DNA of 64,000 nucleotides from a virus (taxonomy: Duplodnaviria > Caudoviricetes): IMG/VR virus record IMGVR_UViG_3300018475_000104, positions 45,535 through 109,534 of that record; one strand, given 5' to 3'. The notes below the pieces were generated by a model that ran no database searches, was not told the DNA's origin, and was given only the letters and a program-made list of their open reading frames with translations. The position numbers and the translations under genes were made by a program. Shown piece by piece: positions 3-33,100 of this stretch (within the stretch, counting starts at the first letter, position 1; every line of letters begins with the position of its first letter).

Positions 3-464
3 AAAAGTTATAAAATAAATAATAAGACTAATGAAAATAATAAACGAAAAAATGAACAAACCAAAATAAGATGTTCTCGTCCAGTTGAGCAATATGACTT
101 ACAAGGTAATTTTATAAAACTTTGGGAATCTGCTTCGGAATGCGGCAGAACTTTTGGAAACGAATCTTTTATTAGTGCTATTTGTAGATAGGAAGAAAAC
201 ATTATTACTGCTTATGGTTATTTATTTAAATATGCAGACGACCCTTAGGATATTAAAATATGGGTTGAAAGAGTGGCAAATAAAAAAAATGGTGGAAAAC
301 CAAAAAAACAAATAGGGCAATATGATTTAAATTGGAATCTAATTTCTGTTTATAATTCTGGGGCTGACGCTGCAAAGGCTCTAGGGAAAAATGACAAAAG
401 CAATATTTGCGCGGCAGCGAGAAAGGAAGGTAAAGCATATGGATTCTTATGGAAATACGAATAA
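3..464 (+). CDS. Homing endonuclease-associated protein with NUMOD1-type DNA-binding repeats; 5'-truncated by the window; 2 in-frame TAG
   Basis: Frame open from base 3 except TAG at 189 and 246. Two repeats, 'RPVEQYDLQGNFIKLWESASEC' and 'KQIGQYDLNWNLISVYNSGADAA...AYGFLWKY', are typical of NUMOD1 modules. Confidence 0.7.
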
Positions 465-3400
465 TAAAAGTGGCTATCCAGGAAGTCTTCACAACCACAC
501 TGATTTTTCAAATTTGAGACTTCGGGATTGCATAATTAAGGTCGAAGATTTACTATGGCACGCCGCGAAACTTGGACATGAAGTAGTCGGAATTACTGAC
601 CACGATAGTTTAAGTTGTCACATAAAAGCAGAAAAAATATACAAAAAGGTAAAAGAAAAATATCCTAATTTTAAGATGATTAGAGGCAATGAAATTTATC
701 TCGTCCGAAATGGTTTGAATGCTGATAATTTTAATAGAGACTTTGACAAATATTATCATTTTTGCTTGTATGCAAAAGACGCCACCGGGCACCAGCAAAT
801 TCGAGAAATCTCAACTCGTGCGTGGAATCGTTCTTACATGGCGCGCGGTATGCGTCGAGTTCCTACATACTATCAAGACCTGATTGATATTATTGGAGCG
901 AATCCTGGACACGTTATTGGTTCCACGGCTTGTCTTGGTGGCGCGCTTGCGACTCAGTTAATGAAATTTCAAGTCCTTTCAAGAGGTACCGGAAAGATCG
1001 AAGCTGCTTTAAATTTAAAGGAAAAAATTATTTCTTGGTGTAATCAAATGAAGAATCTCTTCGGAGAGGGTAATTTCTTCTTTGAACTTCAACCTTCTGA
1101 AAGTCATGAGCAGACTTATGTAAATAGACAGTTAATTGGTTTGTCTATTTTGCTTGATATCCCCTATATTATCACCACTGATAGTCACTACTTGAAAAAG
1201 GAAGATGCCGATGTTCATGCGGCTTTTCTTAACGCGCAAGATGGTGATCGAGAAGTTAAGTCTTTCTATGCTACGACTTATATGATGAGTACAGAAGAAC
1301 TTGAAAGTCATATGGATTTAACAGAAGAAGAACTCGAAAAGGCTTATGATAATATTCGCGCAATTAAGGATATGTGTGAAGATTATAGTTTAATGAAGCC
1401 TTTAAAGATTCCCCAACTTCCTTGGAGAGATTTAGGTTCTTATCAAATCGACCAAAGAACATGGTGTAAACGAATTCCCTATCTCGATAAGTTTTGGAGT
1501 TCAGAGTATGAAGGAGATAAGGAGCTTGCTGATGCAATTTGTTTAAAACTAATGGAAGATGAAAGACTCCATGATTTTAAGATTTATGATGCAATCAATG
1601 AATGTCTTGAAATGACTTGGATTTCTTCGGAAGTAAATAAAACTCATTGGTCAGCATATTATCTAAATCTCCAAAAGATTATTGAGGAATGTTGGAACGC
1701 AGGAACACTCGTAGGATGCGGGCGCGGTTCTGGTGTAGGTTTCATTTTGTTGTATTTGCTTGGTATCACTCAAATAAATCCTCAATGGGAGACAACTCAA
1801 ACTTTTGCTTGGCGTTTCCTTAACCCAGATCGTGTATCTGTACTGGACGTTGACGTAGACATTGAGGGCGGCCGTCGTGGTCAGGTTTTGAATCATCTGC
1901 GCCAAGTGTATGGTAATGACCGAGTAGCAAACGTAACCACTTTCGGCACTGAAAAAGCAAAAAGTGCAATTCAAACAGCTTGTCGTGGTTTAGGTATTGA
2001 TGTAGATATTGCTCAGTATTTGAGTTCGATGATTGCGGCAGATCGTGGTCTTCAGCGTAGTTTGAAGCAAACTTTCTATGGCGATGAAGAAAATGATTTT
2101 CTACCTAATAAACAGTTCGTTTATGAAATGACAGAAAATTATCCCGAAGTTTGGGCAATCGCGCAGAAGATTGAAGGACTTGTATGTCGAAGTGGTATTC
2201 ACGCGGGCGGTGTGATTTTCGTTGATGAACCTTTCACAAACTCAACTGCTCTAATGCGCGCGCCAGATGGAACTTTGGTTACACAGTATGACCTTCACGA
2301 TTGCGAAGATGTATCACTAATTAAATATGACTTGCTTTCTGTTGAAGCATTGGATAAGATGCATATTTGTCTTGACTTGTTGGTTCAGGATGGATATATT
2401 AAACCAGAAACAAGCCTAAAAGAAACTTACGAAAAAGTAATTGGTATCTACAACCTTGAAAGAGAAGATAAGAAGATGTGGAAAATGGTTTGGAACCATC
2501 AAATTTCTTCTCTGTTTCAAATGGAGAAGCAATCTGGTATTCAAGGAGTTGCTTTGGTTAGACCGGAAAGTGTTGATGACTTGGCAACTCTAAACTCTGT
2601 AATTCGTCTAATGGCGCAGGAGAAGGGCGCTGAACAACCACTAAATAAATTTGCTCGTTTCAAAGCAGATATTAGTTTGTGGTATGACGAGATGGCGCGA
2701 TATGGTTTAACAGAAGATGAAATGAAGATTCTTGAACCGATTATAAAACTTTCTTATGGCATTTGTGAAAGCCAGGAAGGATTCATGCAGTTGGTTCAGA
2801 TGCCAGAATGTGGTGGATTTGACTTGTCTTGGGCAGATAGACTTCGTAAGTCTATTGCAAAGAAGAATCCTGCAGATTATGAAAAACTTCAAACTGAATA
2901 CTTTGCGCGAGTCGAAGAAAAAGGTTTGAGCAAGAGACTTTGTAATTATGTGTGGAATGTTCTGGTAGCAACGAGTAGAGGTTATGGTTTTAATAAGAGC
3001 CATACTCTTGCTTATTCATTGATTGCGCTTCAAGAAATGAATCTAGCTTTCCATTATCCAGTTATTTACTGGAACACCGCTTGTTTGATTTCTGATAGCG
3101 GCGGTGCCGAAAGAGATGATTCTGAACTTAGTGAAGATGAAGAAAGAGAAGATTTATGGTTTGTTGAAGCAGAAAGTGTTGTTGAAGAGTTTGTAGAAGA
3201 AGATGATGAAGAAGATGAAGAGGATGAAGAAGAAGTTACTGTAAAAAAGAAAAAGAAAACTCGTTCAGCAAACTATGGTAAAATTGCTAGCGCGATTGGT
3301 AAAATGAAATCGGAAGGCGTTGAGATTGTATCTCCCAACATTAATAAGTCGTCTTTCACTTTCTCTCCTGACGCGGAAACAAATACGATTCGTTTTGGTT

Positions 3401-4470
3401 TGAGTGGTATCACACGAATTGGCGAAGAGCTAATTCAAAATATCATTGAGAATAGACCTTATGAGTCTGTAGAGGACTTCTTAAAGAGAGTTAAAATCAA
3501 TAAACCTCAAATGGTTAATCTGATTAAAGCGGGCGCATTTGATGATTTTGGTGATAGGTTTGGTTTGATGGTAAAGTATATTGAATCTATCAGTGATAAG
3601 AAAAATCGAATCACTTTACAGAATATGAAAATGCTAATTGATTTTGGTTTGATTCCCGATGAATTTGACCTTGAGCGCCGTGTATATAATTTTAATAAGT
3701 ATTTGAAGAAGTTTAAGTTTGAGAAATATTATCTGTTAGATAATATTGCTCTTGGATTCTTTGATAAACACTTCGATATTGATATACTTGTCCCAACGGA
3801 TAAAGTTGAAACTGGTTTAATGATTGAACAAGTTAAATGGGATAAGATTTATCAAAAACATATGGATATTGTTCGTCCTTATGTTAAAACTCACAATCAA
3901 GAACTGCTTGAGGCAGTGAACTCAAAGTTGGTTAAGGATATGTGGGATAAGTATTGTAAGGGTAATATCAGTAAATGGGAAATGGATAGCGTTTCTTGTT
4001 ATTTCCATGAACATGAACTTGCTGATGTTGAGGAATATTATTTCGATTGTGTAGACTTTAATGAGTTGAGCGAACAGCCCGAAGTTGATTCTGTATTTAC
4101 GATTAAGGGCAAACAAGTTCCTATTTTTAAAATTTATCGTATTATGGGAACAATTTTGGATAAAGATAAGGCAAAGAAAACAGTAACCTTATTAACAAAT
4201 ACTGGTGTTGTAACTGTAAAGATTTATGGTGATGTTTATTCTCACTATGATAAGCAGGTGTCTGAGAAGAATGTGGCAACTGGTAAGAAAAAGGTTATTG
4301 AAAAGTCTTGGTTCACAAGAGGTAATAAGATTATCGTAACTGGTATTCGGCGCGATGATATGTTCATGGCGAAGAAATATTCGAGAACTCCTTATCATCT
4401 TGTAGAATTAATTACTGAGGTTAAGGGTGAGAGAATTATGACTCGTGGAGAAAGAACTGAAGTGGTATGA
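439..4470 (+). CDS. dnaE: DNA polymerase III alpha subunit (family C)
   Basis: PHP motifs (HNHTDFS, TDHD, DSHY), GRGSG, catalytic DVDVD, HAGG, GFNKSH. Start moved to ATG 439 behind the RBS AAGGAAGGT. No in-frame TAG. Confidence 0.95.
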   Translation: MDSYGNTNNKSGYPGSLHNHTDFSNLRLRDCIIKVEDLLWHAAKLGHEVVGITDHDSLSCHIKAEKIYKKVKEKYPNFKMIRGNEIYLVRNGLNADNFNRDFDKYYHFCLYAKDATGHQQIREISTRAWNRSYMARGMRRVPTYYQDLIDIIGANPGHVIGSTACLGGALATQLMKFQVLSRGTGKIEAALNLKEKIISWCNQMKNLFGEGNFFFELQPSESHEQTYVNRQLIGLSILLDIPYIITTDSHYLKKEDADVHAAFLNAQDGDREVKSFYATTYMMSTEELESHMDLTEEELEKAYDNIRAIKDMCEDYSLMKPLKIPQLPWRDLGSYQIDQRTWCKRIPYLDKFWSSEYEGDKELADAICLKLMEDERLHDFKIYDAINECLEMTWISSEVNKTHWSAYYLNLQKIIEECWNAGTLVGCGRGSGVGFILLYLLGITQINPQWETTQTFAWRFLNPDRVSVLDVDVDIEGGRRGQVLNHLRQVYGNDRVANVTTFGTEKAKSAIQTACRGLGIDVDIAQYLSSMIAADRGLQRSLKQTFYGDEENDFLPNKQFVYEMTENYPEVWAIAQKIEGLVCRSGIHAGGVIFVDEPFTNSTALMRAPDGTLVTQYDLHDCEDVSLIKYDLLSVEALDKMHICLDLLVQDGYIKPETSLKETYEKVIGIYNLEREDKKMWKMVWNHQISSLFQMEKQSGIQGVALVRPESVDDLATLNSVIRLMAQEKGAEQPLNKFARFKADISLWYDEMARYGLTEDEMKILEPIIKLSYGICESQEGFMQLVQMPECGGFDLSWADRLRKSIAKKNPADYEKLQTEYFARVEEKGLSKRLCNYVWNVLVATSRGYGFNKSHTLAYSLIALQEMNLAFHYPVIYWNTACLISDSGGAERDDSELSEDEEREDLWFVEAESVVEEFVEEDDEEDEEDEEEVTVKKKKKTRSANYGKIASAIGKMKSEGVEIVSPNINKSSFTFSPDAETNTIRFGLSGITRIGEELIQNIIENRPYESVEDFLKRVKINKPQMVNLIKAGAFDDFGDRFGLMVKYIESISDKKNRITLQNMKMLIDFGLIPDEFDLERRVYNFNKYLKKFKFEKYYLLDNIALGFFDKHFDIDILVPTDKVETGLMIEQVKWDKIYQKHMDIVRPYVKTHNQELLEAVNSKLVKDMWDKYCKGNISKWEMDSVSCYFHEHELADVEEYYFDCVDFNELSEQPEVDSVFTIKGKQVPIFKIYRIMGTILDKDKAKKTVTLLTNTGVVTVKIYGDVYSHYDKQVSEKNVATGKKKVIEKSWFTRGNKIIVTGIRRDDMFMAKKYSRTPYHLVELITEVKGERIMTRGERTEVV

Positions 4471-5600
4471 GTATTGGGCTATATGATATTGATTTTATGA
4501 CTTATATTCATGTTCCTTTCAATCTCACCCTAATGAAACTCGCGGCTTATTACAAAAAGAAAAGAGAAGTAGTAGTTCTGGCTCCTTATTTGGAGCCAGA
4601 GCGATATCAAAAGATGTATGTGGTTAAGGACTATTTTGATGGAAATTTTGATAGAAGAATTCTTGAATCAAATGTAATATATAGTGGTCATGCGTTTACA
4701 AAAGACTTTTACAGCGCGATGGCGCCGGAAATTGAGATAATGAAACCAGATAAATATCTTTATCACAAGTATGATAAAATGTTTTGTATTAACAAGTCAA
4801 AAGAGTCTTTATTTAAAACAATGACCAATGCAGAACATATACGACTTTCACTTGATAATAAAACAATTTGGCCTGGTTATAAAAAAACTTATTCTTTTTC
4901 TCCTACAACGCGCGCCGTCATCTTTCATGATTATAATATAGCCTCTTTAGAAAATGGATATGAGACTGTGAAAGAAATTATTTCTGAAATGAATCAAAAT
5001 TGGTTTCATGGGCCATTACTCGGCGCGAAGTTCCCAATTCAAGTTTCAACACCAGAAGATTTATTTAATTGGATGGATTTTAAAGCCATGGACATCTTTT
5101 ATAATATTCAGTATAATAATTTAATGAGCGATGAACTTGTTAATGAAACTGTGCAAAGATTTCCAATGAATAGTAAAAAGATGTGGTATAATGTAACCTC
5201 GACATCATACAACGAGAACCATTTTTCAAAAGAAGTCTTACCAAAAATTTTTCGTCAGGCTTTATTTTTTCGGACTCACCATATACCAATCCTACTTAAA
5301 TATGACGATAATTTTTTCAAAGACGAAAGATGGGAACGAGTTATTAAATTGATAAATGGTTATGTCTCAATGAATAACAGAGCGCCAAAGAAAGAAGGCT
5401 TTAGAGATTTCAGTAGAACTTTTACAATGTTTAGATATGTAACTTCAAAAAATCTTGTAGAAGCACCTTCCAGTGATTGGACAATTGAAGAGTTAAGAGA
5501 TTTATTCCAATTCGTCAGAGAAGAAAGTTATGAAACATTTAAAATGTTTTATGAATCATGTTTAATGGAATATAAAGGAGGAAAAATTAATGACATCTAA
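4467..5600 (+). CDS. Hypothetical protein; N-terminus resembles phage radical-SAM-associated proteins but no CxxxCxxC
   Basis: 377-aa ORF coupled to dnaE by ATGA overlap; begins IGLYDIDF...NLTLMKLAAYYK. Confidence 0.55.
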   Translation: MSIGLYDIDFMTYIHVPFNLTLMKLAAYYKKKREVVVLAPYLEPERYQKMYVVKDYFDGNFDRRILESNVIYSGHAFTKDFYSAMAPEIEIMKPDKYLYHKYDKMFCINKSKESLFKTMTNAEHIRLSLDNKTIWPGYKKTYSFSPTTRAVIFHDYNIASLENGYETVKEIISEMNQNWFHGPLLGAKFPIQVSTPEDLFNWMDFKAMDIFYNIQYNNLMSDELVNETVQRFPMNSKKMWYNVTSTSYNENHFSKEVLPKIFRQALFFRTHHIPILLKYDDNFFKDERWERVIKLINGYVSMNNRAPKKEGFRDFSRTFTMFRYVTSKNLVEAPSSDWTIEELRDLFQFVREESYETFKMFYESCLMEYKGGKINDI

Positions 5601-5781
5601 AGAAATTAAAGAGAAAATTGATTTTAACAATAAACTCATTAGAGATATGTTTAATCCTAATCAATTTACTTTAAATAACACGGTGCGCGAACTTCTTGAA
5701 GAGAATGCGCGGCTCCAAGAAAAATGCGAACATAAATATGCTGATGGTTATTGTGTTTATTGCTACAAGGAGAAGAAATAA
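5590..5781 (+). CDS. Small protein with C-terminal Zn-binding motif (CEH...CVYC)
   Basis: RBS AGGAGG; overlaps both neighbours. Confidence 0.7.
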   Translation: MTSKEIKEKIDFNNKLIRDMFNPNQFTLNNTVRELLEENARLQEKCEHKYADGYCVYCYKEKK

Positions 5782-5981
5782 TGATAATACTTTATTCAAC
5801 TGGTTGTCCTCGTTGCACTGTTTTAGAAAAGAAACTTGAGCAGAAAAAAATTGAATACTCTAAAATAACTGACGTAGATGTAATGCTAGCGATGGGAATT
5901 AAGTCTGTTCCAATGCTTCAAATTGATGACGCCGCGCCAATGGATTATATGAAAGCAGTTAATTGGGTAAAGGAGCAGTAA
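5781..5981 (+). CDS. nrdH: Glutaredoxin-like NrdH redoxin
   Basis: CPRC active site and SVP cis-Pro motif; directly upstream of nrdD; start at MIILY. Confidence 0.85.
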   Translation: MIILYSTGCPRCTVLEKKLEQKKIEYSKITDVDVMLAMGIKSVPMLQIDDAAPMDYMKAVNWVKEQ

Positions 5982-5982
5982 A

Positions 5983-7893
5983 ATGAACATTAATATTAGA
6001 TTAAGCAAAAACTTTACTACCGCATATAACAAAATGCAAGAAGCCTACGGCGAAGAAATCGCGCGAATCAATGGCTTCTCAGATGGCCTTCTATCATATA
6101 CAGACTTCATTGATAATTTCGTTGATACAGAAACAGTGGCAGATGCTTCTGTAGATGGTAATGCTAACGTTGGTCAAAAAGATATCGTAACTCTAATCAA
6201 TGAAATGCCTAAACCTCATCAAAAGCTTTTGGCTTTCAATAAAATCTATCACGAAATCAATAAGAAATATGGCTTTAAAGTGGCAAATGATTGGCTTCGC
6301 GCGGAATGGGATGGACATCTATATATGCATGATGCGAATACCACTTCATTCGTTCATTATTGCTTTGCTTATGATTTAAAAGACTTGGCTGAAAAAGGTC
6401 TATTCTTTATTGAAAACTTTAATGCTGAACCTCCTCAGCACTTAGAAACTTTTGTCGATTTTGTTAAAGAGTTTGTAAGTTGGGCTTGTAATCGAAGCTC
6501 TGGCGCGGTTGGTTTACCAAATCTAATTCCTTATATGTATTATTTTTGGAATAGAGATTGTGAGAAAGGTTATTACACAGTTTCTCCCGAAAAATATGCT
6601 GAGCAACAAATCCAACGTCTTATTTACGCTTTAAATCAACCTTTCCTGCGCGGCGGTATTCAATCTGCCTTTACGAATACATCTGTATTTGACCGCCCCT
6701 ATCTTGAGGCTCTATTTGGCGGCGCCGAGTTCCCAGATGGAACCTTCATGATTGATGAAATGGAAGGCATTATGGAATTCCAAAAGCTTTATATGGAAAC
6801 AATGAGTAAAATTCGTTCTCATAATATGATGACTTTCCCAGTAAGCACTATTTCTCTATTAAAACAAAATGGCAAATTTGAAGATGAAGATTTTGCAATT
6901 TGGGCTTGTAAGCACAATATGAAGTGGAATGATTCAAATATCTTTGCTGATTCAAGTGTCAATAGTCTATCCAATTGTTGCCGCCTAAAATCTAACATTG
7001 AAGACCTTGGTTATTTTAACTCAATCGGCGGCACTGCTTTAAAGGTTGGTTCTGTAAAGGTTAATACAATTAATCTCGCGCGCCTTGCTTTGGAGAATAA
7101 AACTGAGAAGGACTATTTAGTTGCTTTGCGCGATATGGTTGAGTTAGACCTCAAAGCTCTTGATGCAGTAAGATATATCATTCGCAGAAATGTTGAGAAA
7201 GGTTTGTTAAAGAATTTCACTCTTGGCTTAGTTGATTTTGAGCATTTGTATAATACAATTGGCTTTATTGGTATTTATGAGACAATGAAGTCTTTTGGAT
7301 ATGTAAGATATGATGAATTTGGCAATTGCTTCTATACCGAAGAAGCTGAAAAGTTTGGCAAAAAGATTTTCGATGTAATTCATAATGTAGCTGATAACTT
7401 TAAGCTTGATAAAGATTACATGATTAACTGTGAAGCTATTCCTGGCGAAAGTGCTGCCGCGAAGCTAATGAAGAAAGACAAATTCTTCTTCCCCGAAACC
7501 GTAGTAGATGACCTACCTCTCTATGGTAATCAGTTTATTCCTCTCGGCATTAAAACCACTCTTCAAGAAAGAATTCGTATCGCTGCAATGTTTGATGGAT
7601 TCTGTAATGGTGGTAGCATTCTTCATGCCAATATCGAAGCGCCATTTAAGACTTTTGAACAAGCTTGGGATATGCTTAATTACATTACTGACCAGGGAGT
7701 AACCTATTTTGCTTTTAACACAAAAATTCAAGCCTGCGCGAAGAACCATGCTTTCTATGGCACAGTTTGTCCCGAATGTGGCGGCCCTGTTGAGACAGAA
7801 TATACACGAATTGTAGGTTTCTACACACCAGTAAAAACTTATTCCAAAGAAAGAAAAGCAGAATACGCAATGCGCGAATGGGAGAATGTATAA
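5983..7893 (+). CDS. nrdD: Anaerobic (class III) ribonucleoside-triphosphate reductase
   Basis: SNCCRL finger loop, PGES, CxxC Zn site, C-terminal YTRIVGF glycyl-radical motif. Confidence 0.93.
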   Translation: MNINIRLSKNFTTAYNKMQEAYGEEIARINGFSDGLLSYTDFIDNFVDTETVADASVDGNANVGQKDIVTLINEMPKPHQKLLAFNKIYHEINKKYGFKVANDWLRAEWDGHLYMHDANTTSFVHYCFAYDLKDLAEKGLFFIENFNAEPPQHLETFVDFVKEFVSWACNRSSGAVGLPNLIPYMYYFWNRDCEKGYYTVSPEKYAEQQIQRLIYALNQPFLRGGIQSAFTNTSVFDRPYLEALFGGAEFPDGTFMIDEMEGIMEFQKLYMETMSKIRSHNMMTFPVSTISLLKQNGKFEDEDFAIWACKHNMKWNDSNIFADSSVNSLSNCCRLKSNIEDLGYFNSIGGTALKVGSVKVNTINLARLALENKTEKDYLVALRDMVELDLKALDAVRYIIRRNVEKGLLKNFTLGLVDFEHLYNTIGFIGIYETMKSFGYVRYDEFGNCFYTEEAEKFGKKIFDVIHNVADNFKLDKDYMINCEAIPGESAAAKLMKKDKFFFPETVVDDLPLYGNQFIPLGIKTTLQERIRIAAMFDGFCNGGSILHANIEAPFKTFEQAWDMLNYITDQGVTYFAFNTKIQACAKNHAFYGTVCPECGGPVETEYTRIVGFYTPVKTYSKERKAEYAMREWENV

Positions 7894-8123
7894 TGGCTGA
7901 AATGAATATGGATACTGTTTCGCTAAGCAGAGTAAAAAAATTAGTAGAACAATTAGAAAGACAAAAGGCGCAACTTGAACTAAGTGAAGAAGATGACTTA
8001 GAAGTTGCTTTTGAATATATAATTGGCAGTCTATTTCCAACAGCTTATCAAAATATGAAAAATGCCTGTCGCGCCTTCTATATTGAAGGATATAATGAAG
8101 GGAAGAAAGCGAATGAAAATTAA
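7893..8123 (+). CDS. Hypothetical protein
   Basis: Coupled to nrdD (TAATG) and overlaps nrdG. Confidence 0.7.
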   Translation: MAEMNMDTVSLSRVKKLVEQLERQKAQLELSEEDDLEVAFEYIIGSLFPTAYQNMKNACRAFYIEGYNEGKKANEN

Positions 8124-8583
8124 AGGTTTAAATGAGTGTGATATAGTAAATTATAAAAAAACCTCAATGTTTATTGTATTTCCTCATTGTAGCTTTAAAT
8201 GTGATAAAGAGTGCGGGCGCAATGTTTGTCAAAACAGCGCGCTCGCTTGTGCTCCTATATTTGAAATAGACACAAAAAAAATAATTGAAAGGTATGTATA
8301 TAATCCTTTAACAAAAGCCTTGGTTTGTGGTGGACTTGAGCCATTTGACAGTTGGGAAGAATTACAAGAGTTAATTTTTAATTTTAGACAAGAAAATAAT
8401 GATGAAATTGTTATTTACACTGGCTACACAGAAGAAGAAATAGAAGATAAAGTTGAATGGTTAAAATTATATAGTCCAATTACTATTAAATATGGCAGAT
8501 TCATTCCAAATCAAGAAAAACATTTTGACGAAATTTTAGGCGTAGATTTAGCAAGCTCAAATCAATACGCGAAGGAGTATTAA
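8113..8583 (+). CDS. nrdG: Anaerobic RNR activating radical SAM protein
   Basis: CSFKCDKEC cluster motif, GGLEPF, IYTGY; adjacent to nrdD. Confidence 0.88.
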   Translation: MKIKGLNECDIVNYKKTSMFIVFPHCSFKCDKECGRNVCQNSALACAPIFEIDTKKIIERYVYNPLTKALVCGGLEPFDSWEELQELIFNFRQENNDEIVIYTGYTEEEIEDKVEWLKLYSPITIKYGRFIPNQEKHFDEILGVDLASSNQYAKEY

Positions 8584-8585
8584 AT

Positions 8586-8786
8586 ATGTCATCATCAATG
8601 ACAATTACAATTAATCAAGATAAAGCAGAAGTTGAACGTATTCGGCGCGCAGTGCGTGAAAATGATGGATATTGCCCATGCCAGTTAGAAAAAAACGAAA
8701 ACACTCGTTGTATGTGTAAAAATTTTGTAAATAGCGAAGAAAGTGGCTGGTGTCACTGTGGCCTGTATTTTAAAACTATAAAATAA
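8586..8786 (+). CDS. Ferredoxin:thioredoxin reductase catalytic-subunit-like protein
   Basis: GYCPC...CMC...CHCGLY pattern of the FTR catalytic chain. Confidence 0.8.
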   Translation: MSSSMTITINQDKAEVERIRRAVRENDGYCPCQLEKNENTRCMCKNFVNSEESGWCHCGLYFKTIK

Positions 8787-8789
8787 ATT

Positions 8790-8818
8790 TTGACTTCCTT
8801 CGAAAAATATGTTATAAT
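8790..8818 (+). promoter_or_regulatory. SigA/sigma70-type promoter for the deaminase-thyX-tRNA-dut-ruvC unit
   Basis: TTGACT-17 bp-TATAAT. Confidence 0.8.
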
Positions 8819-8851
8819 ATTTATAGATAAAAAAGAGAAGGGAAAAGAACT

Positions 8852-9268
8852 ATGACCAATCGAGAAAAGAGAATGTTTCGAGTAGCAAAAGAGATTTCAA
8901 AATTTTCTAACTTTAATGGGCCGCATATTGGCGCAGTAGTATGTGAAGGAAAGACTATAATCTCAACTGGTTATAATTCTTATAAGACTCGGCCTCTTCA
9001 ACATCAATATAACATATATCGAGACTTTGAAGATTATGAAAACTCTATCCCCAGACAACACGCAGAAGTTGATGCTTTGAGTCGGCTTATTGGTAAAGAA
9101 GTTGATTGGAATAATGTGTCTATTTTTGTTTATAGAGAATTTAAAAATGGCGAACCAGGCTGTTGTCGACCGTGCGCGGCGTGTTCTCGTTTAATTAAAG
9201 ATTTGGGTATTAGAAACATTTATTTTATTGATGAAGAAGGACGATATTGCAAGGAAAAGGTGCTTTAA
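8852..9268 (+). CDS. Cytidine/dCMP deaminase family protein
   Basis: HAE...PCAAC Zn motif and IGAV...STGYN. Confidence 0.85.
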   Translation: MTNREKRMFRVAKEISKFSNFNGPHIGAVVCEGKTIISTGYNSYKTRPLQHQYNIYRDFEDYENSIPRQHAEVDALSRLIGKEVDWNNVSIFVYREFKNGEPGCCRPCAACSRLIKDLGIRNIYFIDEEGRYCKEKVL

Positions 9269-9868
9269 ATGAAATTTACCGATATTGTTTCAAATGTAAA
9301 AATTTATGATTTAGAAGAATCAATTATCGCAAGTGGCTATCCTATGAGAACTAAAGCTGGTAGGCGAGAAGTTGAGGAGAAAGATATTAATCGGGGCGAA
9401 AAGTTAGTTAGGGCTACCCTTGGCGGTAATACCGCACATCATTAGTTCTTAACAGGTATTAGGGTAAACTTTGATTTAACTTTTACAAATAAGGCGTGGG
9501 TTGAAGCCGAAAGATATAGATTCTTAGAATTTGTTTCAAGCCAATCAACAATGCACAGAATTACTAAATTCAATTTAGATAATCAGTATATTAAATATGT
9601 TGACCCACGAGTTATTAAAATTATGCAAGAGTTGGTTGATGCATACAACGAAAATCCAACTCCAGAAAATTACTTAAAGGTTCTTTATACAAATCCCGCA
9701 GGTTTTAAAATTACTGCGCGCATGACTACAAACTATAGAAGTTTAAGAAATATTTATATTCAAAGAAAGAATCATAGATTACCTGAATGGCGCGCGTTTT
9801 GTAAATGGATTGAAACCTTACCTTTTGCAAAAGAGTTTTTAACTAATATTAATCAAGAAGAGGAATAA
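9269..9868 (+). CDS. ThyX-like flavin-dependent thymidylate synthase family protein; 1 in-frame TAG (9443)
   Basis: ATG 9269 is in frame with ORF 9551..9868. Reads AHH*FLTG...ERYRF...SSQSTMH...TNYRSL...R..HRLPEW. Confidence 0.75.
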
Positions 9869-9915
9869 TTCCTCTTTTTATAGCCGTGTAGTTTAATGGT
9901 AAAACGCCGGTCTCT

Positions 9916-10604
9916 AATTAAAAATTGGACACCAAGAAGGGAAACCGCTTGTGTGAATCGTGTCAAATTCGGTAAAACTCTTTAGGAGAATACAATGGCA
10001 ACAAAAATTTCACTTTTAAGTGACGAAGAATTTTAGAAAATAATTTATGAATCTTATTCCTATGCTGAATGTTGTAGAAAGATTGGATATAGTGATAAAG
10101 GAAGTCATGGCACAGATGCGATAAAGAAAAGATGTCAAGAACTTAACTTGTCTACTAGTCATTTTTCTAAGACCAAGGCAGCAAATAAAAGTAGCACAAA
10201 ATATTCTTTAGATGATATATTGATTGAAAATTCTAATTATAAAAACATATCAAGATTAAAAACTCGACTAATCAATGAAAACAAACTTGAATATAAATGT
10301 GCTATATGTGGTAATACTGGAGAATGGAATAATAATCCCCTAGTTCTTCAATTAGACCATATTAATGGAAAACACAACGACCATCGTTTAGAAAATCTAA
10401 GATTCTTATGTCCTAACTGTCATTCTCAAACAGAAACATATTCTGGAAAAAATAAAAATAAAGACAATACCGAGCTAAATCAGTAAAAAACTGTAAATGT
10501 GTAGAGACTAAACGGCACGAACCTAAACCCAATTTGGGCATGGTTAAGATATAGTCCAGACTACAACACAAATAATTGTGGCCATGGTGACATGGAGTAG
10601 TATG
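9916..10604 (+). mobile_element. Group I self-splicing intron (689 nt) inserted between anticodon positions 35 and 36
   Basis: P1 with U.G wobble exactly at exon U35 (TCTAATT/AATTGGA). P3 CGTGTC/GGCACG. P4 TTCGGTA/TACCGAG. R element GTAGAGACTAA, S element AAGATATAGTCC. P9 hairpin CCATG-GTGA-CATGG with GNRA loop. Terminal omega-G at 10604. Confidence 0.92.
9995..10486 (+). CDS. Intron-encoded HNH homing endonuclease; in-frame TAG at codon 14 (10034)
   Basis: RBS AGGAG at 9984 and ATG 9995, in frame with ORF 10148..10486. CAIC...LDHING...HRLENLRFLCPNCH HNH motif. Confidence 0.88.
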
Positions 10605-10691
10605 AAAACCGTAATATCCTTCTGACGGAGGTTATCTGGGTTCGAATCCCAGCACGGCCGCCAATCAAATATTTTACTGGAGGACAGTCCA

Positions 10692-10916
10692 ATGAGAGAT
10701 GGTTTTGATGCCTCTAGTTTTCTAATACCCAAAGCATTCCATGATTTACCACTTTTTGGTGGAGGAGAAGGAAATGACGTTGGGTGGATGTTACTAGATC
10801 TTGCAACCTACTATAATGAACTTTTAGACAAATACTTACAAACTAATGATGACAGATATTTAAAAGTTTTAAATGCAATACTACCAAATCTAAGGAGAGA
10901 ATTAGAAGATGAGTGA
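10692..10916 (+). CDS. Hypothetical protein
   Basis: RBS GGAGG; overlaps the dut start. Confidence 0.6.
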   Translation: MRDGFDASSFLIPKAFHDLPLFGGGEGNDVGWMLLDLATYYNELLDKYLQTNDDRYLKVLNAILPNLRRELEDE

Positions 10917-30146: not shown

Positions 30147-33100
30147 TTACCGTTGTAGTGAAATTGTGTTTACATTTCGATACATACCATCTTCATAGAT
30201 ATTTTGTTTAATACGTTCACTTAACTGGTCTACATCGTAATCACTACCGATTTCATCAACAATGATATCAATATCAAAGTAGTTGTCGCCGCCTTGTGCG
30301 GAAGTTTTTCCGGACATCGCGCCGAGTGCATCGGCCAGGATATCTTTTAGTACGATAAAGTTTTTGGTGTCTTGTTGGTTTAGAACAAGTTCGGGATGGG
30401 ATTTTGTTCCGTCTAACCAAGCTGGGCCGGTGAAATCGGCAAGACCGCCGGTTTTGAAGGCTTTATACTTAGCGGATTTCATAACCGCATCATGAGTTTT
30501 TGGCCCATAAATACCATCAGCACTTACTCCAACTGCTTTTTGAAGTTTTCTTATTGCAGCAGTTGTTTTTTCACCAATAATACCATCAATAGAACCGGCA
30601 TTAAAACCTGCAGCATTTAAGGCTTTTTGAAGTGTTTTTATTTCACTTTTTGTTGTTGGCCGACGTTTTGAAGCAATAGTTTCTGTTAAAGACTTAAAGT
30701 AGCCCTTGTCAGTACCTTCGTTATCGTCAAGGGATGTTGTTCCTCCCTGCTCTCCACCTTGTGTTTTAGGAGATTCTTTCTTTTTCTCCCCAGCCTCTTC
30801 TGCAGTAGTATAATCTCCATTAAACATCTGCACAACGTCTTTATAAGTTTCACCATCTGCAGTTGTAACACTACCATCTTTATTAACAGTACCAGTTAAA
30901 GTCTCGCCTTTACTATTTCTAAAGGTGACAGTTTTACCAGCTATACCATCAATCTTCTCAAGCTATCTACTTGAACCTTCTCCTATAATCCAAGCCAAAC
31001 CACTCATTATAGTTTGTTCAAGATCATCAACCCAAGTAGCTTTTTGTTGTTCAGACATTGATTTCCAATCGCTATTAGCAGTTAAAAGTTTGCCTAAAGG
31101 AGAAGATGGATCAATTTTACCATCATTTTCAACCAGTTGGGCAATTAAATCATGTGCTTGTTCCCAGAAATATCCGGTTTCTTGCTAATAATCAAGCTAA
31201 GATTGCATTATCTCAATCTAACGTTCTCTTTGCTCTGCGGCCTCCTCATTGGCTTTATTTAGTCGTTCAATTTCTTGGTCAACTAAAGTATCGCCATAAG
31301 ATTCTCTTGCTTCGGCAAGTTGTTCTTCAAGTTCAAGAATCTCAAGACGATTACCGCTAGAAGTATCCGCGCGCAAGTATGCGAGACGAGCTTCCATTTC
31401 AGCAATATCTTCTTCTTGTTTTGTATTGTCGCGAATCTAACGCTCTAGGTCAATTGATTCCTGAAGTGCAGTTAGCATATTAGAAGAAGATTCAGACAAG
31501 GTTTCGGAAAGCGTTGAATAATTATCAATTAAAAGTTGTCTATCAGCAACAATTGCATCGTAAACTTGTTGTTCAAGTTCTTCATAATCTTCACGACCTT
31601 GCTCAAGAATCTCAGCAACTTTATCATCGATTTCATAAAGAGTATCTTCTGTTTCTTCGATTTGACCAGCAACTTCATCATAACGAGATTTTAAAGCTTC
31701 AATTAATGCACCCTGGTCTTCACCAGTTTTTTCATTTTTCTCAATTGCTTCAATTCTGTCCCAGTCAATCCAAAGCTCTCCGGTTTTCTGGTCATATCCC
31801 ATGTACTTATCAATTGAGCCAAGTCCAAGACGTTTGAATTCTTCCGCAAAAGTTGTACGGAATTGTTCCTCTTCATCTCCGTTCCTTTTTGTTGCAATGT
31901 AAGATTCATTTGCTAGATTCTTTAGTTGTCTTTTTCTTCCTTCAAGAAGTTCCTTTTGTAAGCTGCGCTCTCGTTCAAGATTTGCAAGTTGGTCTTTTTG
32001 GTTTTCGTAGAGGTCTTTGAAGGTTTTTGTACGATCTTTTAAGATTCGGTCGTAATCAATTTCAAGTTGATTGCGGTCACGAAGAGTTTCATCAATTTGT
32101 TCTTGTTTGTTGTGGAGTTCATCGTAGGGATTTTCCCAGTGCTAAGTTTTTGGCTTCGAGGACCCACCTCCGCCACCGCCTTTTTTCTATTTTCCAGCAT
32201 CTATATTGCCAGTAGAAATTCCTCCTCCACCAGAACCGGTAGAAGTTAAAGTTTTAACAACAGGAAAATAACCTGTTATACTTTGTGGCTATCCAGTTGT
32301 AGTAACAGTATGCCATTTTGTAGGCATTTTACTGCTCGGATCATATTCATCAATAACACGTTCTGTATATTCAGAAGGAACCATTCTGGTATCTTTAACA
32401 TATTCTATTTCTGCATCAAAACCCATTGCTTTAACAGATTCTTGAATCTGTTCAGCCGATAAGTTTGACGCTGCAGCCATATCGTTAAAGGCATTAATAA
32501 ATTCTTGTGACCCCTCGCCATTCCACTAGACACCAGCTTCTAAATTAGGAATATCAACCCCTTGTATATAGTCTGAAAATTCTTGAATGGCGCTTTTCGC
32601 ACCCTCAACATCTTCTACTTGTAAGCCTAAGTCTATATTATTTAGATAGTCAGAAGCAGCAGCTTTTTGTAATGCTTCTAAAGCTTCAGTATCTCCTTCT
32701 GCGGCCTTCTTTAGATTATCCATATTCTCTGCATTGTCCCAGAAGGCATCAGATAAATCTTCGGAAGTATTAAGCATTGTATTAACAGACTTCTTTAATT
32801 TATTATACGCTGCGACATCTTCGCTTGAACTTGCTTTTATAGTACCAGTATTTTCGTCAATCAATCCTGTCCATTCGTCATAAGATTCAATGATTTCACC
32901 TAAACCTAGATTCATCTTAGAATTTGCTAAGGCAACCTAAGTCGCAGTTACTTTGTTAAGACCTTCATTTATATTTTGAAGATGCTCAGCATAGGCTGTC
33001 ATTTCATTTACATCGAGACCTGCCTCTATAGCTTCATTTTGCGCACTATAGATTATACTTTCATCGCTATGGCCCAACGCCTCTGCTTCAGCCGAGCTAT

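Follow-up and report, generated by a model that had tools for sequence, protein, structure and literature searches.

Bacterial and plastid tRNA genes can carry group I introns in their anticodon loops. The classical classes of these introns are Leu-UAA ('Leu.3Ug', CUU/AAAA), fMet, Ile2 and Arg, all of subgroup IC3 (Williams 2020, bioRxiv 10.1101/2020.01.27.920355, citing the group I intron database). The same work raised the number of anticodon-loop classes to 21, and its running text names no suppressor class. For phages, a 2014 review of bacterial group I introns placed all examples in protein-coding genes (PMC3984707). 'Enigmatic' introns were later described in tRNA genes of the TAG-recoded Lak megaphages, where phage tRNA introns were said to be unreported before (Devoto et al. 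2019, PMC6784885); that paper gives no intron class and describes none in a CUA suppressor. A ribozyme step has been linked to phage tRNA-Sup maturation in recoded gut phages through theta (HDV-like) ribozymes, for which the authors discuss a possible role in switching the code (Kienbeck et al. 2024, PMC10879173). In Agate phages, an intron of an early protein-coding gene carries an endonuclease ORF with in-frame recoded TGA stops, so that the endonuclease is expected only after the switch (Borges et al., bioRxiv 10.1101/2021.08.26.457843). phAss-1, in which TAG is read as Gln according to its authors, carries an annotated, intron-less Sup-CTA gene. Stop-codon-recoded phages are common in gut viromes, and the lack of a visible suppressor tRNA in some clearly recoded genomes is a standing puzzle (Yutin 2021, PMC7886860; PMC10607447; PMC12386605).

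Here we analyze a locus in a 64,000-nucleotide stretch (hereafter the window) of a recoded phage contig, in which the two halves of a tRNA gene flank a group I intron with an endonuclease ORF. We consider it very probable that a phage amber suppressor tRNA gene has been invaded, between U35 and A36, by a mobile group I intron with its HNH gene, and that this intron is a selfish passenger and not a purpose-built regulator. The features of the locus are as follows.

9882..9915, + strand: 5' exon of tRNA(CUA), with the acceptor 5' strand, D arm, anticodon stem 5' strand and loop C32 U33 C34 U35
9916..10604, + strand: group I intron of 689 nt, which starts directly after U35 and ends with omega-G10604; it shares the core motif of the family, and its helices fit the covarying family fold
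9913..9929, + strand: P1 hairpin, 9913-9919 with 9923-9929 (exon UCU and intron AAUU against AAUUGGA)
9929..9954, + strand: P2 hairpin capped by a GAAA tetraloop; all six of its six pairs change on both sides in the family
9959..9964 (CGUGUC) with 10514-10519 (GGCACG), + strand: P3; 94.8% paired in the family, compensatory changes in 6/6 pairs
9968..9974 (UUCGGUA) with 10468-10474 (UACCGAG), + strand: P4; fits the family fold
9979-9984 with 10459-10464, + strand: P5; encloses the HNH ORF
9995..10486, + strand: HNH homing-endonuclease ORF, 163 aa, in the P5 loop (Pfam PF01844)
10481..10493, + strand: P6 hairpin (CAGU/ACUG), overlapping the stop codon of the ORF; its pairs show covariation within the family
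10506-10510 (GACUA) with 10552-10556 (UAGUC), + strand: P7; invariant in the family
10520-10545, + strand: P8; covaries in the family
10560..10604, + strand: P9 three-way junction (P9 ACUAC/GUAGU, P9a, P9b), ending at omega-G10604
10605..10663, + strand: 3' exon of tRNA(CUA), with A36 A37 A38, anticodon stem 3' strand, 23-nt variable arm, T arm, acceptor 3' strand, G73 and encoded CCA

The 5' half of the tRNA ends in ...CCGGT-CT-CT, and the 3' half starts with A-AA-ACCGT and ends in G73-CCA. When the halves are joined at U35|A36, a 93-nt tRNA with the anticodon loop CUCUAAA and the anticodon CUA results, and the in-silico junction reads ...GGUCUCUAAAACCGU.... These halves, loop and anticodon had been named in the preliminary description, and each lies where it was placed; removal of 9916-10604 in silico gives an ARAGORN call of tRNA(cta), as foreseen there, with a length of 93 nt. 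The long variable arm is an addition to that description. Three combinations of U(-1) and G(omega) give a 7-nt loop over at least 4 stem pairs, and only with the junction 9915|10605 does the anticodon stem stay in the register that the D arm dictates. The tRNA carries the mismatches A1.C72 and C27.U43, which could be a mark of decay; A.C at 1:72 is also found in 9 uninterrupted relatives. A scan for consensus terminators at the tRNA gave none, and promoter-like sites were at chance level. A hairpin and a T-run at 9860-9879 were noted by eye only.

Since the intron splits the gene, the gene is hidden from tRNA finders. ARAGORN with default settings reports 0 genes and Rfam at gathering thresholds 0 matches at the locus. 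When introns are allowed, ARAGORN puts the intron at 32/33 and mislabels the tRNA as His(atg), in agreement with the earlier expectation that standard finders would miss it.

The intron contains every element of the group I core that had been proposed for it (P1 U.G, P3, P4, P7, GNRA-capped P9 and omega-G), and its family fold covaries. The wobble pair U9915.G9927 is located within P1 at the 5' splice site, the 3' strand of P7 sits inside AAGATATAGTCC (10546-10557), and the P3/P7 pseudoknot typical of group I introns is present. P9b is capped by the GNRA loop GTGA, with compensatory changes in 5/5 P9b pairs in the family. The omega-G is G10604, followed by AAAACCGU; in the alignment of family introns, nearly all have their terminal G at this position. 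In the suggested search with group I covariance models, Rfam RF00028 matches the intron with an E value of 0.0034 (9.2e-5 on the genome), but its 22.1 bits do not reach the gathering score of 50. In this alignment, the 3' core alone is placed properly; the 5' third of the model is laid over the ORF, and the true 5' strands of P1-P4 (9913-9974) lie upstream of the match. According to Williams 2020 (bioRxiv 10.1101/2020.01.27.920355), the Rfam seed holds no bacterial sequence and cut-offs of about 18-20 bits were used.

The support for the fold comes from pair counts in the intron family and the projection of the family helices onto the window. Over the 51 pairs of the family fold, 90.1% of the cells are paired, versus 70.7% in shuffles and 34-39% in slid-partner controls; changes on both sides are seen in 34 of the 51 pairs, and none of 500 shuffles attains the observed values. 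The U.G pair of P1 is invariant (16/16 family members), and the guide sequence follows the exon, with ACUU/GAGU in Leu and CUCU/GGAG in CUA genes. The window intron forms every helix of this fold.

The core motif occurs in at least 98 IMG/VR stretches and at least 120 bacterial stretches, and a split tRNA spans it in 70 of the 80 IMG/VR loci that were fetched. Splice mapping of the IMG/VR loci assigns 48 to Leu-UAA, 7 to CUA (the window included) and 5 to Arg-UCU, and a further 4 mis-registered calls are Arg-UCU when the junctions are read by eye. Among 80 of the at least 120 bacterial loci, which include a cyanobacterium, we found Leu CTT/AAAA (27), Arg CTT/CTAA (22) and CAU CT/CATAA (16), and no CUA tRNA. 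By BLAST, Lak records also match the core of the window intron. A paralogue in the same genome splits tRNA-Leu(UAA) at genome c[3367,4166] and has a near-identical 3' core. An orthologous split gene, with the same tRNA type, site and ORF position, lies on a TAG-recoded 123-kb contig (hereafter L091).

The window intron shares with the classical bacterial and plastid tRNA introns the conserved core GUAGAGACUA...AUAGUCCAGACUAC, the helices, the P3/P7 pseudoknot, the 5' U.G, the 3' omega-G, the insertion in the anticodon loop and the optional homing-endonuclease ORF in a peripheral loop, and its exact core motif is found in bacterial Leu-UAA, Arg-UCU and CAU tRNA genes. In view of the many tRNAs of phages and bacteria that this core interrupts (Leu-UAA, Arg-UCU, CAU), we regard the element as a mobile member of the classical tRNA intron family that occupies a new host gene. 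Unlike the classical introns, it lies in a phage gene for an amber suppressor tRNA(CUA), inserted between positions 35 and 36. As judged from these comparisons, this choice of host gene is what appears to be new: the author of the preliminary description knew of no described case, and our literature search for an amber suppressor tRNA split by a group I intron in a phage likewise found no description.

The ORF in the P5 loop matches the HNH family PF01844 (E 7.2e-6, 26.5 bits versus a cutoff of 21.4), shows the CxxC...HxxxH...CPNCH motifs in an alignment with two paralogues, and is preceded by a ribosome-binding site, AGGAGA, at 9984-9989. In a blastn search of the whole element against GenBank phages, the matches were HNH genes only, from T4-like and Staphylococcus phages. 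The endonuclease probably homes to intron-less alleles, and the existence of such target alleles is consistent with homing. Not mentioned in the preliminary description are the ORF itself and its single in-frame TAG at codon 14 (10034-10036), downstream of which the ORF has no Met codon. Because of this TAG, the endonuclease would be makeable only when the suppressor is active, i.e. after the code switch. This resembles the endonuclease ORF of the Agate phages; in contrast to the intron there, the window intron interrupts the very tRNA that would read the TAG of its own ORF.

Intron-less alleles, which the preliminary description had advised looking for in related phages, were found in IMG/VR, in phAss-1 and on four metagenome contigs. 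In IMG/VR, 75 stretches contain CCGGTCTCTAAAACCG, and there are 35 unique, uninterrupted long-arm tRNA(CUA) genes; the best homologue is 86% identical to the spliced product. The four metagenome tRNA(CUA) genes align to window positions 9880-9917 and 10605-10664, skipping the intron exactly; the 5' halves of uninterrupted metagenome tRNAs and the window's 5' exon share 94% identity. No match to a 20-mer spanning the 5' exon was found in IMG/VR. The Sup-CTA of phAss-1 is 82% identical to the spliced product (83% for the 3' exon), shares the anticodon arm CCGGU-CUCUAAA-ACCGU, the long variable arm, G73 and the encoded CCA, and is also located near nrdD; it is intron-less, whereas the window gene is split by 689 nt. 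G73 is present in 34 of the 35 unique long-arm tRNAs; in about 30 of them the 1:72 pair is weak or mismatched. The host tRNA is a member of a widespread phage family of long-variable-arm tRNA(CUA), marked by this weak or mismatched pair and G73.

The contig that contains the window is linear, 109.5 kb long and about 89% complete. Reading TAG as sense nearly doubles the ORF content of the phage, and in-frame TAG is used as a sense codon, e.g. 44 times in a 2737-aa ORF. The split gene is the sole gene for a TAG-reading tRNA on the 109.5-kb contig, on which no second CUA tRNA was found; a second, uninterrupted one had been named in the preliminary description as a finding that would refute gating by splicing. 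It lies at the end of a nearly TAG-free early/replication block, and TAG-bearing genes start just after it. Megablast of 25 kb against GenBank phages found no close relatives. The neighboring dUTPase-like gene leads to two relatives at about 50% identity, without a tRNA at the corresponding place; TAG recoding is not clear in one of these two, G001, which we used as the reference for the amino acid at TAG. A crAss-like affiliation of the window phage was considered and rejected, as the nearest TerL proteins belong to Firmicutes phages and phAss-1 (36-42% identity).

At 31 of the 104 TAG sites aligned to G001, TAG stands against Q, an 8.6-fold enrichment, and Ser, Tyr and Leu show no enrichment. 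On these alignment statistics, glutamine is the residue that the split tRNA would most likely insert at TAG codons in late genes. The long variable arm had suggested a Ser, Tyr or Leu identity, which we rejected because Q/E/K, and not S/Y/L, stand opposite the TAG sites. The identity set of E. coli GlnRS includes G73 and a weak 1:72 pair; the split tRNA matches it in both, although a Gln acceptor would not usually have such a long variable arm.

For the tRNA to function, the primary transcript would have to lose the intron through guanosine-initiated self-splicing, with cuts after U9915, which forms the P1 wobble with G9927, at the 5' splice site and after G10604 at the 3' splice site. We infer from the intact core that the intron splices, and it would be phenotypically tolerated because it splices. 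The CUCUAAA loop would exist only after exon joining. Since the anticodon itself is split, the gene could not decode UAG until the intron is removed, as had been reasoned before, and TAG decoding by the split gene would depend on a ribozyme step; this dependence follows from the anatomy. In this respect the locus resembles the theta ribozymes. However, those cleave the 3' trailer outside the tRNA, whereas the window intron lies inside the anticodon and would rejoin the exons by two transesterifications (PMC10879173).

The preliminary description went further and proposed that the rate or timing of intron removal delays the suppressor, and hence the translation of TAG-containing late genes. The solitary split gene on the contig, its position ahead of the TAG-bearing genes and the same solitary arrangement in a complete recoded genome, NC_055898.1, would suit such a splicing-gated switch, and a ribozyme-linked suppressor has already been proposed as a switch for the theta ribozymes (PMC10879173). 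However, most relatives of the tRNA are uninterrupted: 35 unique homologues in other phages, that of phAss-1 included, lack the intron, and recoded relatives therefore work without it. The same intron family also resides in Leu-UAA, Arg-UCU and CAU tRNAs; the Leu-UAA and Arg-UCU tRNAs have no recoding role, and one of these is in the same genome. The intact endonuclease ORF here and the decaying copy in L091 fit the life cycle of a selfish element, and no ligand-binding or regulatory element was seen. The tRNA group I introns of Anabaena and Azoarcus splice efficiently without regulation. We therefore regard gating by splicing as unsupported and unlikely, and the same low probability applies to the related idea that the phage has co-opted the intron, with the TAG-bearing endonuclease ORF closing the loop so that homing would be licensed only after the switch. 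The selfish-passenger interpretation is the best reading and is an argument from distribution, with which a lineage that exploits the splicing step stays compatible.

A non-splicing intron or a decayed tRNA would leave the gene inactive, with TAG read by a suppressor from the unassembled part of the genome or from the host. The contig is linear and incomplete, and it starts inside a tRNA-Phe(GAA) gene. The array of tRNA genes thus continues past the contig end, where a second CUA tRNA may lie; phAss-1 has three Sup-CTA genes, so multiple copies are normal in that group, and the 1:72 and 27:43 mismatches point in the same direction. On the other side, the core helices, U.G pair, omega-G and endonuclease ORF are all intact, the exons are 82-86% identical to intact relatives and share their acceptor signature, and the complete genomes bearing the intron family have no other CUA tRNA, which makes an inactive gene a quite improbable explanation. 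The His(atg) call of ARAGORN, with the intron at 32/33, and the two further U(-1)/G(omega) combinations that formally exist raise the question of whether splicing at a different junction yields another anticodon, such as AUG (His). We consider this extremely improbable: the alternatives lose the D-arm register and give tRNAs of 95-97 nt with poor stems, CCGGTCTCTAAAACCGT is present unchanged in the uninterrupted homologues, whose alignment to the two halves breaks at the proposed junction, and G10604 aligns with the family omega-G.

The split suppressor gene bears on other recoded phages. The abundance of the classical tRNA intron family in phage tRNA genes overturns the statement that all phage group I introns are in protein-coding genes (PMC3984707). 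In NC_055898.1 (cr115_1), a complete TAG-recoded crAss-like RefSeq genome, we found no plain CUA tRNA and one unannotated, intron-split CUA tRNA, in line with the earlier suggestion that a hidden suppressor can explain recoded phages that seem to lack one. Intron-split tRNA(CUA) genes thus offer a concrete and checkable answer for part of the recoded phages without a visible suppressor. In the classical tRNA introns, splicing serves ordinary decoding; at the locus described here, where TAG decoding would depend on splicing, the ribozyme would instead be a precondition for an altered genetic code.

A reading of the sequence at 9700-10850 places the two halves of a tRNA(CUA) gene on either side of a 689-nt intron (9916-10604), which carries an endonuclease ORF. 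The intron helices were mapped by hand and then confirmed by coordinates.

Features of the split tRNA(CUA) gene and its intron (window positions)
9882-9915, tRNA(CUA) 5' half: AGCCGTG-TA-GTTT-AATGGTA-AAAC-G-CCGGT-CTCT
9913-9919 with 9923-9929, P1, including U9915.G9927
9929-9954, P2, GAAA cap
9959-9964 with 10514-10519, P3
9968-9974 with 10468-10474, P4
9979-9984 with 10459-10464, P5
9995-10486, HNH endonuclease ORF, 163 aa, in the P5 loop, preceded by the RBS AGGAGA
10481-10484 with 10490-10493, P6
10506-10510 with 10552-10556, P7
10520-10545, P8
10560-10601, P9, three-way junction, GUGA cap
10604, omega-G
10605-10663, tRNA(CUA) 3' half: AAA-ACCGT, 23-nt variable arm, CTGGG-TTCGAAT-CCCAG, CACGGCC-G-CCA

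ARAGORN at default settings reported no tRNA gene across the whole 64-kb window, and Rfam at gathering thresholds gave no match in the window. When 9916-10604 was deleted in silico, ARAGORN returned a 93-nt tRNA with the anticodon CTA and a long variable arm. With introns allowed, the same program detected the split gene, misplaced its junction and labelled it His(atg). We listed the junctions having U at -1, G at omega, and a 7-nt loop closed by four or more stem pairs. Three satisfy this rule, and only 9915/10605, with the loop CUCU/AAA, keeps the anticodon stem in the register of the acceptor and D arms; the His(atg) reading was rejected on this basis. The in-silico splice and the junction register bear out the preliminary description of a tRNA split inside its CUA anticodon, and its expectation that standard finders miss the gene agrees with the searches. 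Upstream, a hairpin GAGGAA-UAA-UUCCUC followed by UUUUU (9860-9879) overlaps the stop codon of the preceding ORF and ends 2 nt short of the tRNA 5' end. It looks like a candidate intrinsic terminator or processing site and was not flagged by a consensus scan for terminators.

The group I core proposed for the 689 nt was recovered, with all named helices and the omega-G mapped. A relaxed Rfam search matched RF00028 over 10338-10581 with 22.1 bits (E 0.0034), short of its gathering score of 50. This alignment is proper for the 3' core alone; the match leaves out the true 5' strands of P1-P4 (9913-9974), which lie further upstream with the 490-nt ORF in between. The core pattern GTAGAGACTANAC N25-55 ATAGTCCAGACTAC matches at least 98 IMG/VR stretches, and ARAGORN found a split tRNA spanning the core in 70 of 80 fetched IMG/VR loci. 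We aligned 16 distinct ORF-less family members with each other and used them to test a hand-drawn structure of 51 pairs, with P3/P7 as a pseudoknot. Standard pairs occupy 90.1% of the cells versus 70.7% in column shuffles, and 34 of the 51 pairs show changes on both sides. The covariation score was 0.551 versus 0.189 in the shuffles (reached by 0 of 500), and sliding the 3' partner by 1-3 columns left pairing at just 34-39%. With its ORF looped out, the window core forms all helices of the family fold. The predicted intron fold is supported by comparison, beyond the single sequence of the window, and we infer that 9916-10604 would be removed by splicing.

Splice sites across the family were mapped by the U(-1)/G(omega) rule and checked by eye.

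Host tRNAs of the intron family in phages
Leu(UAA), junction CUU/AAAA (classical site), 48 phage loci
Arg(UCU), junction CUU/CUAA, 5 phage loci mapped outright and 4 more by eye
tRNA(CUA), junction CUCU/AAA or CUCU/AAC, 7 phage loci

The seven split CUA cases are the window and the IMG/VR loci L091, L059, L038, L039, L055 and L097. The internal guide follows the exon, being ACUU/GAGU for Leu and CUCU/GGAG or UCU/GGA for CUA; the window's intron is thus adapted to its own insertion site. In the same phage, the tRNA-Leu(UAA) gene at c[3367..4166] of the whole contig (G000:C1, outside the window) is split at the classical site between U34 and A35 by a 714-nt paralogous intron, whose 3' core is near-identical to that of the window's intron. 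Among bacteria, the core motif is present in the genomes of at least 120 species; the hosts among 80 fetched bacterial loci include Leu-UAA (27), Arg-UCU (22) and CAU tRNAs (16), and none is a CUA tRNA. These hosts include classes catalogued by Williams 2020 (bioRxiv 10.1101/2020.01.27.920355), who extended the bacterial tRNA intron classes from 4 to 21 and pointed to the IC3 label that the classical tRNA introns carry in the group I intron database. Two IMG/VR loci, L064 and L076, carry family introns in a short-arm tRNA (loop CUC/AAAA, anticodon CAA) with C instead of U at -1 and a C-G pair in P1, and resemble the 'Leu.3Cg' class, whose splicing the same work flagged as untested.

A 2014 review placed all phage group I introns then known in protein-coding genes, despite the many phage tRNA genes (PMC3984707), and 'enigmatic' introns in Lak phage tRNAs were later reported as the first phage tRNA introns (Devoto et al. 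2019, PMC6784885). A BLAST query with a split CUA tRNA and its intron matched the intron core in all ten matched Lak megaphage records (MK250020-MK250029; e.g. Lak-B1 412067-412314), so at least some of these introns may be group I introns of the same family. In our full-text literature search, no paper described a suppressor tRNA interrupted by a group I intron. We consider the window's feature real and well supported. It adds a new member to the family of tRNA group I introns, with a phage amber suppressor as a new host gene.

Another kind of insert interrupts the anticodon loop of a Lys-UUU-like tRNA on the minus strand outside the window (L358, G000:C1 c[571..1135]). Its ~486 nt encode a 140-aa PDDEXK_5 endonuclease of the I-Ssp6803I family (E 3.7e-27), leaving just ~65 nt non-coding; a group I core is absent, and no junction satisfies the U(-1)/G(omega) rule. 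This sequence prolongs the anticodon stem into a long helix, UUUUUAG/CUAAAAA and then GAAUGGCAAUUAC/GUAAUUGCCAAUUC. An endonuclease of this type is encoded at nine related IMG/VR loci, in eight of which ARAGORN places it inside a split Lys-like or Pro-like tRNA; in the identical loci L361 and L362 the tRNA halves could be made out only by eye. The first helix covaries among these inserts (..AG/CU.., ..CA/UG.., ..CG/CG..), and they are candidates for a non-group-I tRNA intron or an inverted-repeat element.

Intron-less relatives of the window's tRNA were found both in metagenomes and in IMG/VR. Intact tRNA(CUA) genes on four metagenome contigs align to 9880-9917 and then 10605-10664, exactly omitting the proposed intron. 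In IMG/VR, 75 stretches carry the uninterrupted anticodon arm CCGGTCTCTAAAACCG, and 62 of them gave tRNA(cta) calls, most of 86-95 nt with the same long variable arm; the best intact IMG/VR relative shares 86% identity with the window's spliced product. This long-arm phage family is widespread (window 9882-9915 and 10605-10663; loci L120-L194, L357, L368-L371). L091, on a TAG-recoded 123-kb contig, is its only other split member and agrees with the window's gene in insertion site and ORF position.

The viral contig, classed as linear and ~89% complete, has 109,534 bp, and the window is its final 64 kb. With TAG read as sense, ORFs of 200 aa or more hold 30.2 thousand residues instead of 18.6 thousand, and a 2737-aa ORF with 44 TAG codons opens up. 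No TAG occurs in the early replication genes (DnaE-type polymerase, NrdD, dCMP deaminase; 391-9268), and the late block on the minus strand at 13.3-52.4 kb (portal, TerL) is full of it. The nearest TerL matches come from Firmicutes phages and from phAss-1, a code-15 phage (36-42% identity), and a crAss-like affiliation was rejected. We wrote TAG as X in all ORFs and aligned them to G001, a ~50%-identical relative identified by way of the dUTPase-like gene. X stands opposite Q at 31 of 104 TAG sites (enriched 8.6-fold), with E and K next and no enrichment of Ser, Tyr or Leu at these sites. Since Q is enriched and Ser, Tyr and Leu are not, TAG most likely encodes Gln in this phage.

G73 is present in 34 of 35 unique long-arm tRNA(CUA) members, and about 30 of the 35 have U:A, A.C, U.U or A:U at 1:72, a combination that serves E. 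coli GlnRS as acceptor signature. According to the phAss-1 paper, tRNAscan-SE gave a Gln isotype. The long arm of the family resembles type II tRNAs, while its acceptor end is Gln-like and the decoded sites align with Gln; a Gln acceptor with a long variable arm would be unusual. G001, which lacks clear TAG recoding and whose largest ORF grows from 2170 to 3003 aa when TAA is sense, has a 92-95-nt long-arm tRNA (G001:C1:114539-114633) with the odd anticodon loop CCUAUAC and C at position 33, called Ile(tat) by ARAGORN.

The anatomy makes TAG decoding by the split gene dependent on predicted splicing, and to this extent the earlier claim that the tRNA cannot decode UAG until the intron is removed stands. 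The further proposal that splicing is a dedicated timer of late TAG translation has a low probability, given that most relatives of the tRNA lack the intron, that the same family splits ordinary tRNAs, in this genome and in bacteria, and that the window's element bears the hallmarks of a homing intron. A ribozyme-linked suppressor switch has been proposed for theta ribozymes, with introns not mentioned (Kienbeck 2024, PMC10879173). The ORF of the window's intron contains a single TAG in frame, at codon 14 (10034), with no Met codon downstream; the endonuclease is thus adapted to the recoded phage and translatable only once a suppressor is active. The same logic of translation after the code switch applies to the TGA-recoded intron endonuclease of Borges et al. 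(bioRxiv 10.1101/2021.08.26.457843). The HNH ORF of the tRNA-Leu paralogue lies in the P6 loop, rather than P5, and lacks TAG; since the 3' cores are near-identical, ORF and ribozyme modules were combined independently. The orthologous L091 copy has four in-frame TAGs at positions differing from the window's and is frameshifted after LDHI; by eye, a fifth TAG beyond the frameshift lines up with a codon for Gln in the window's ORF. The L091 ORF has the look of a homing endonuclease gene in decay, with a frameshift of the kind expected late in a homing cycle. We read the window's element as most probably a homing intron and mobile passenger, whose TAG-bearing endonuclease would be made only after suppressor activity.

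No second CUA tRNA or CUA-type hairpin was found on the 109,534-bp contig, whose tRNA array (genome 1-4166) is cut short by the assembly. Since the contig start (G000:C1:1-60) cuts a tRNA-Phe(GAA), the array continues into the missing ~11% of the genome, which may hold more tRNAs and perhaps another suppressor. Recoded genomes in which no suppressor could be detected were noted by Yutin 2021 (PMC7886860) and in the phAss-1 and Zeta-crAss papers. The suggestion that split genes could explain such missing suppressors is backed by NC_055898.1 (uncultured phage cr115_1), a complete, strongly TAG-recoded RefSeq crAss-like genome, in which the split tRNA(CUA) at 30527-30842 (L038), with a 228-nt ORF-less intron and no annotated feature, is the sole CUA tRNA. 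The practical weight of the finding lies in the annotation of recoded phages.
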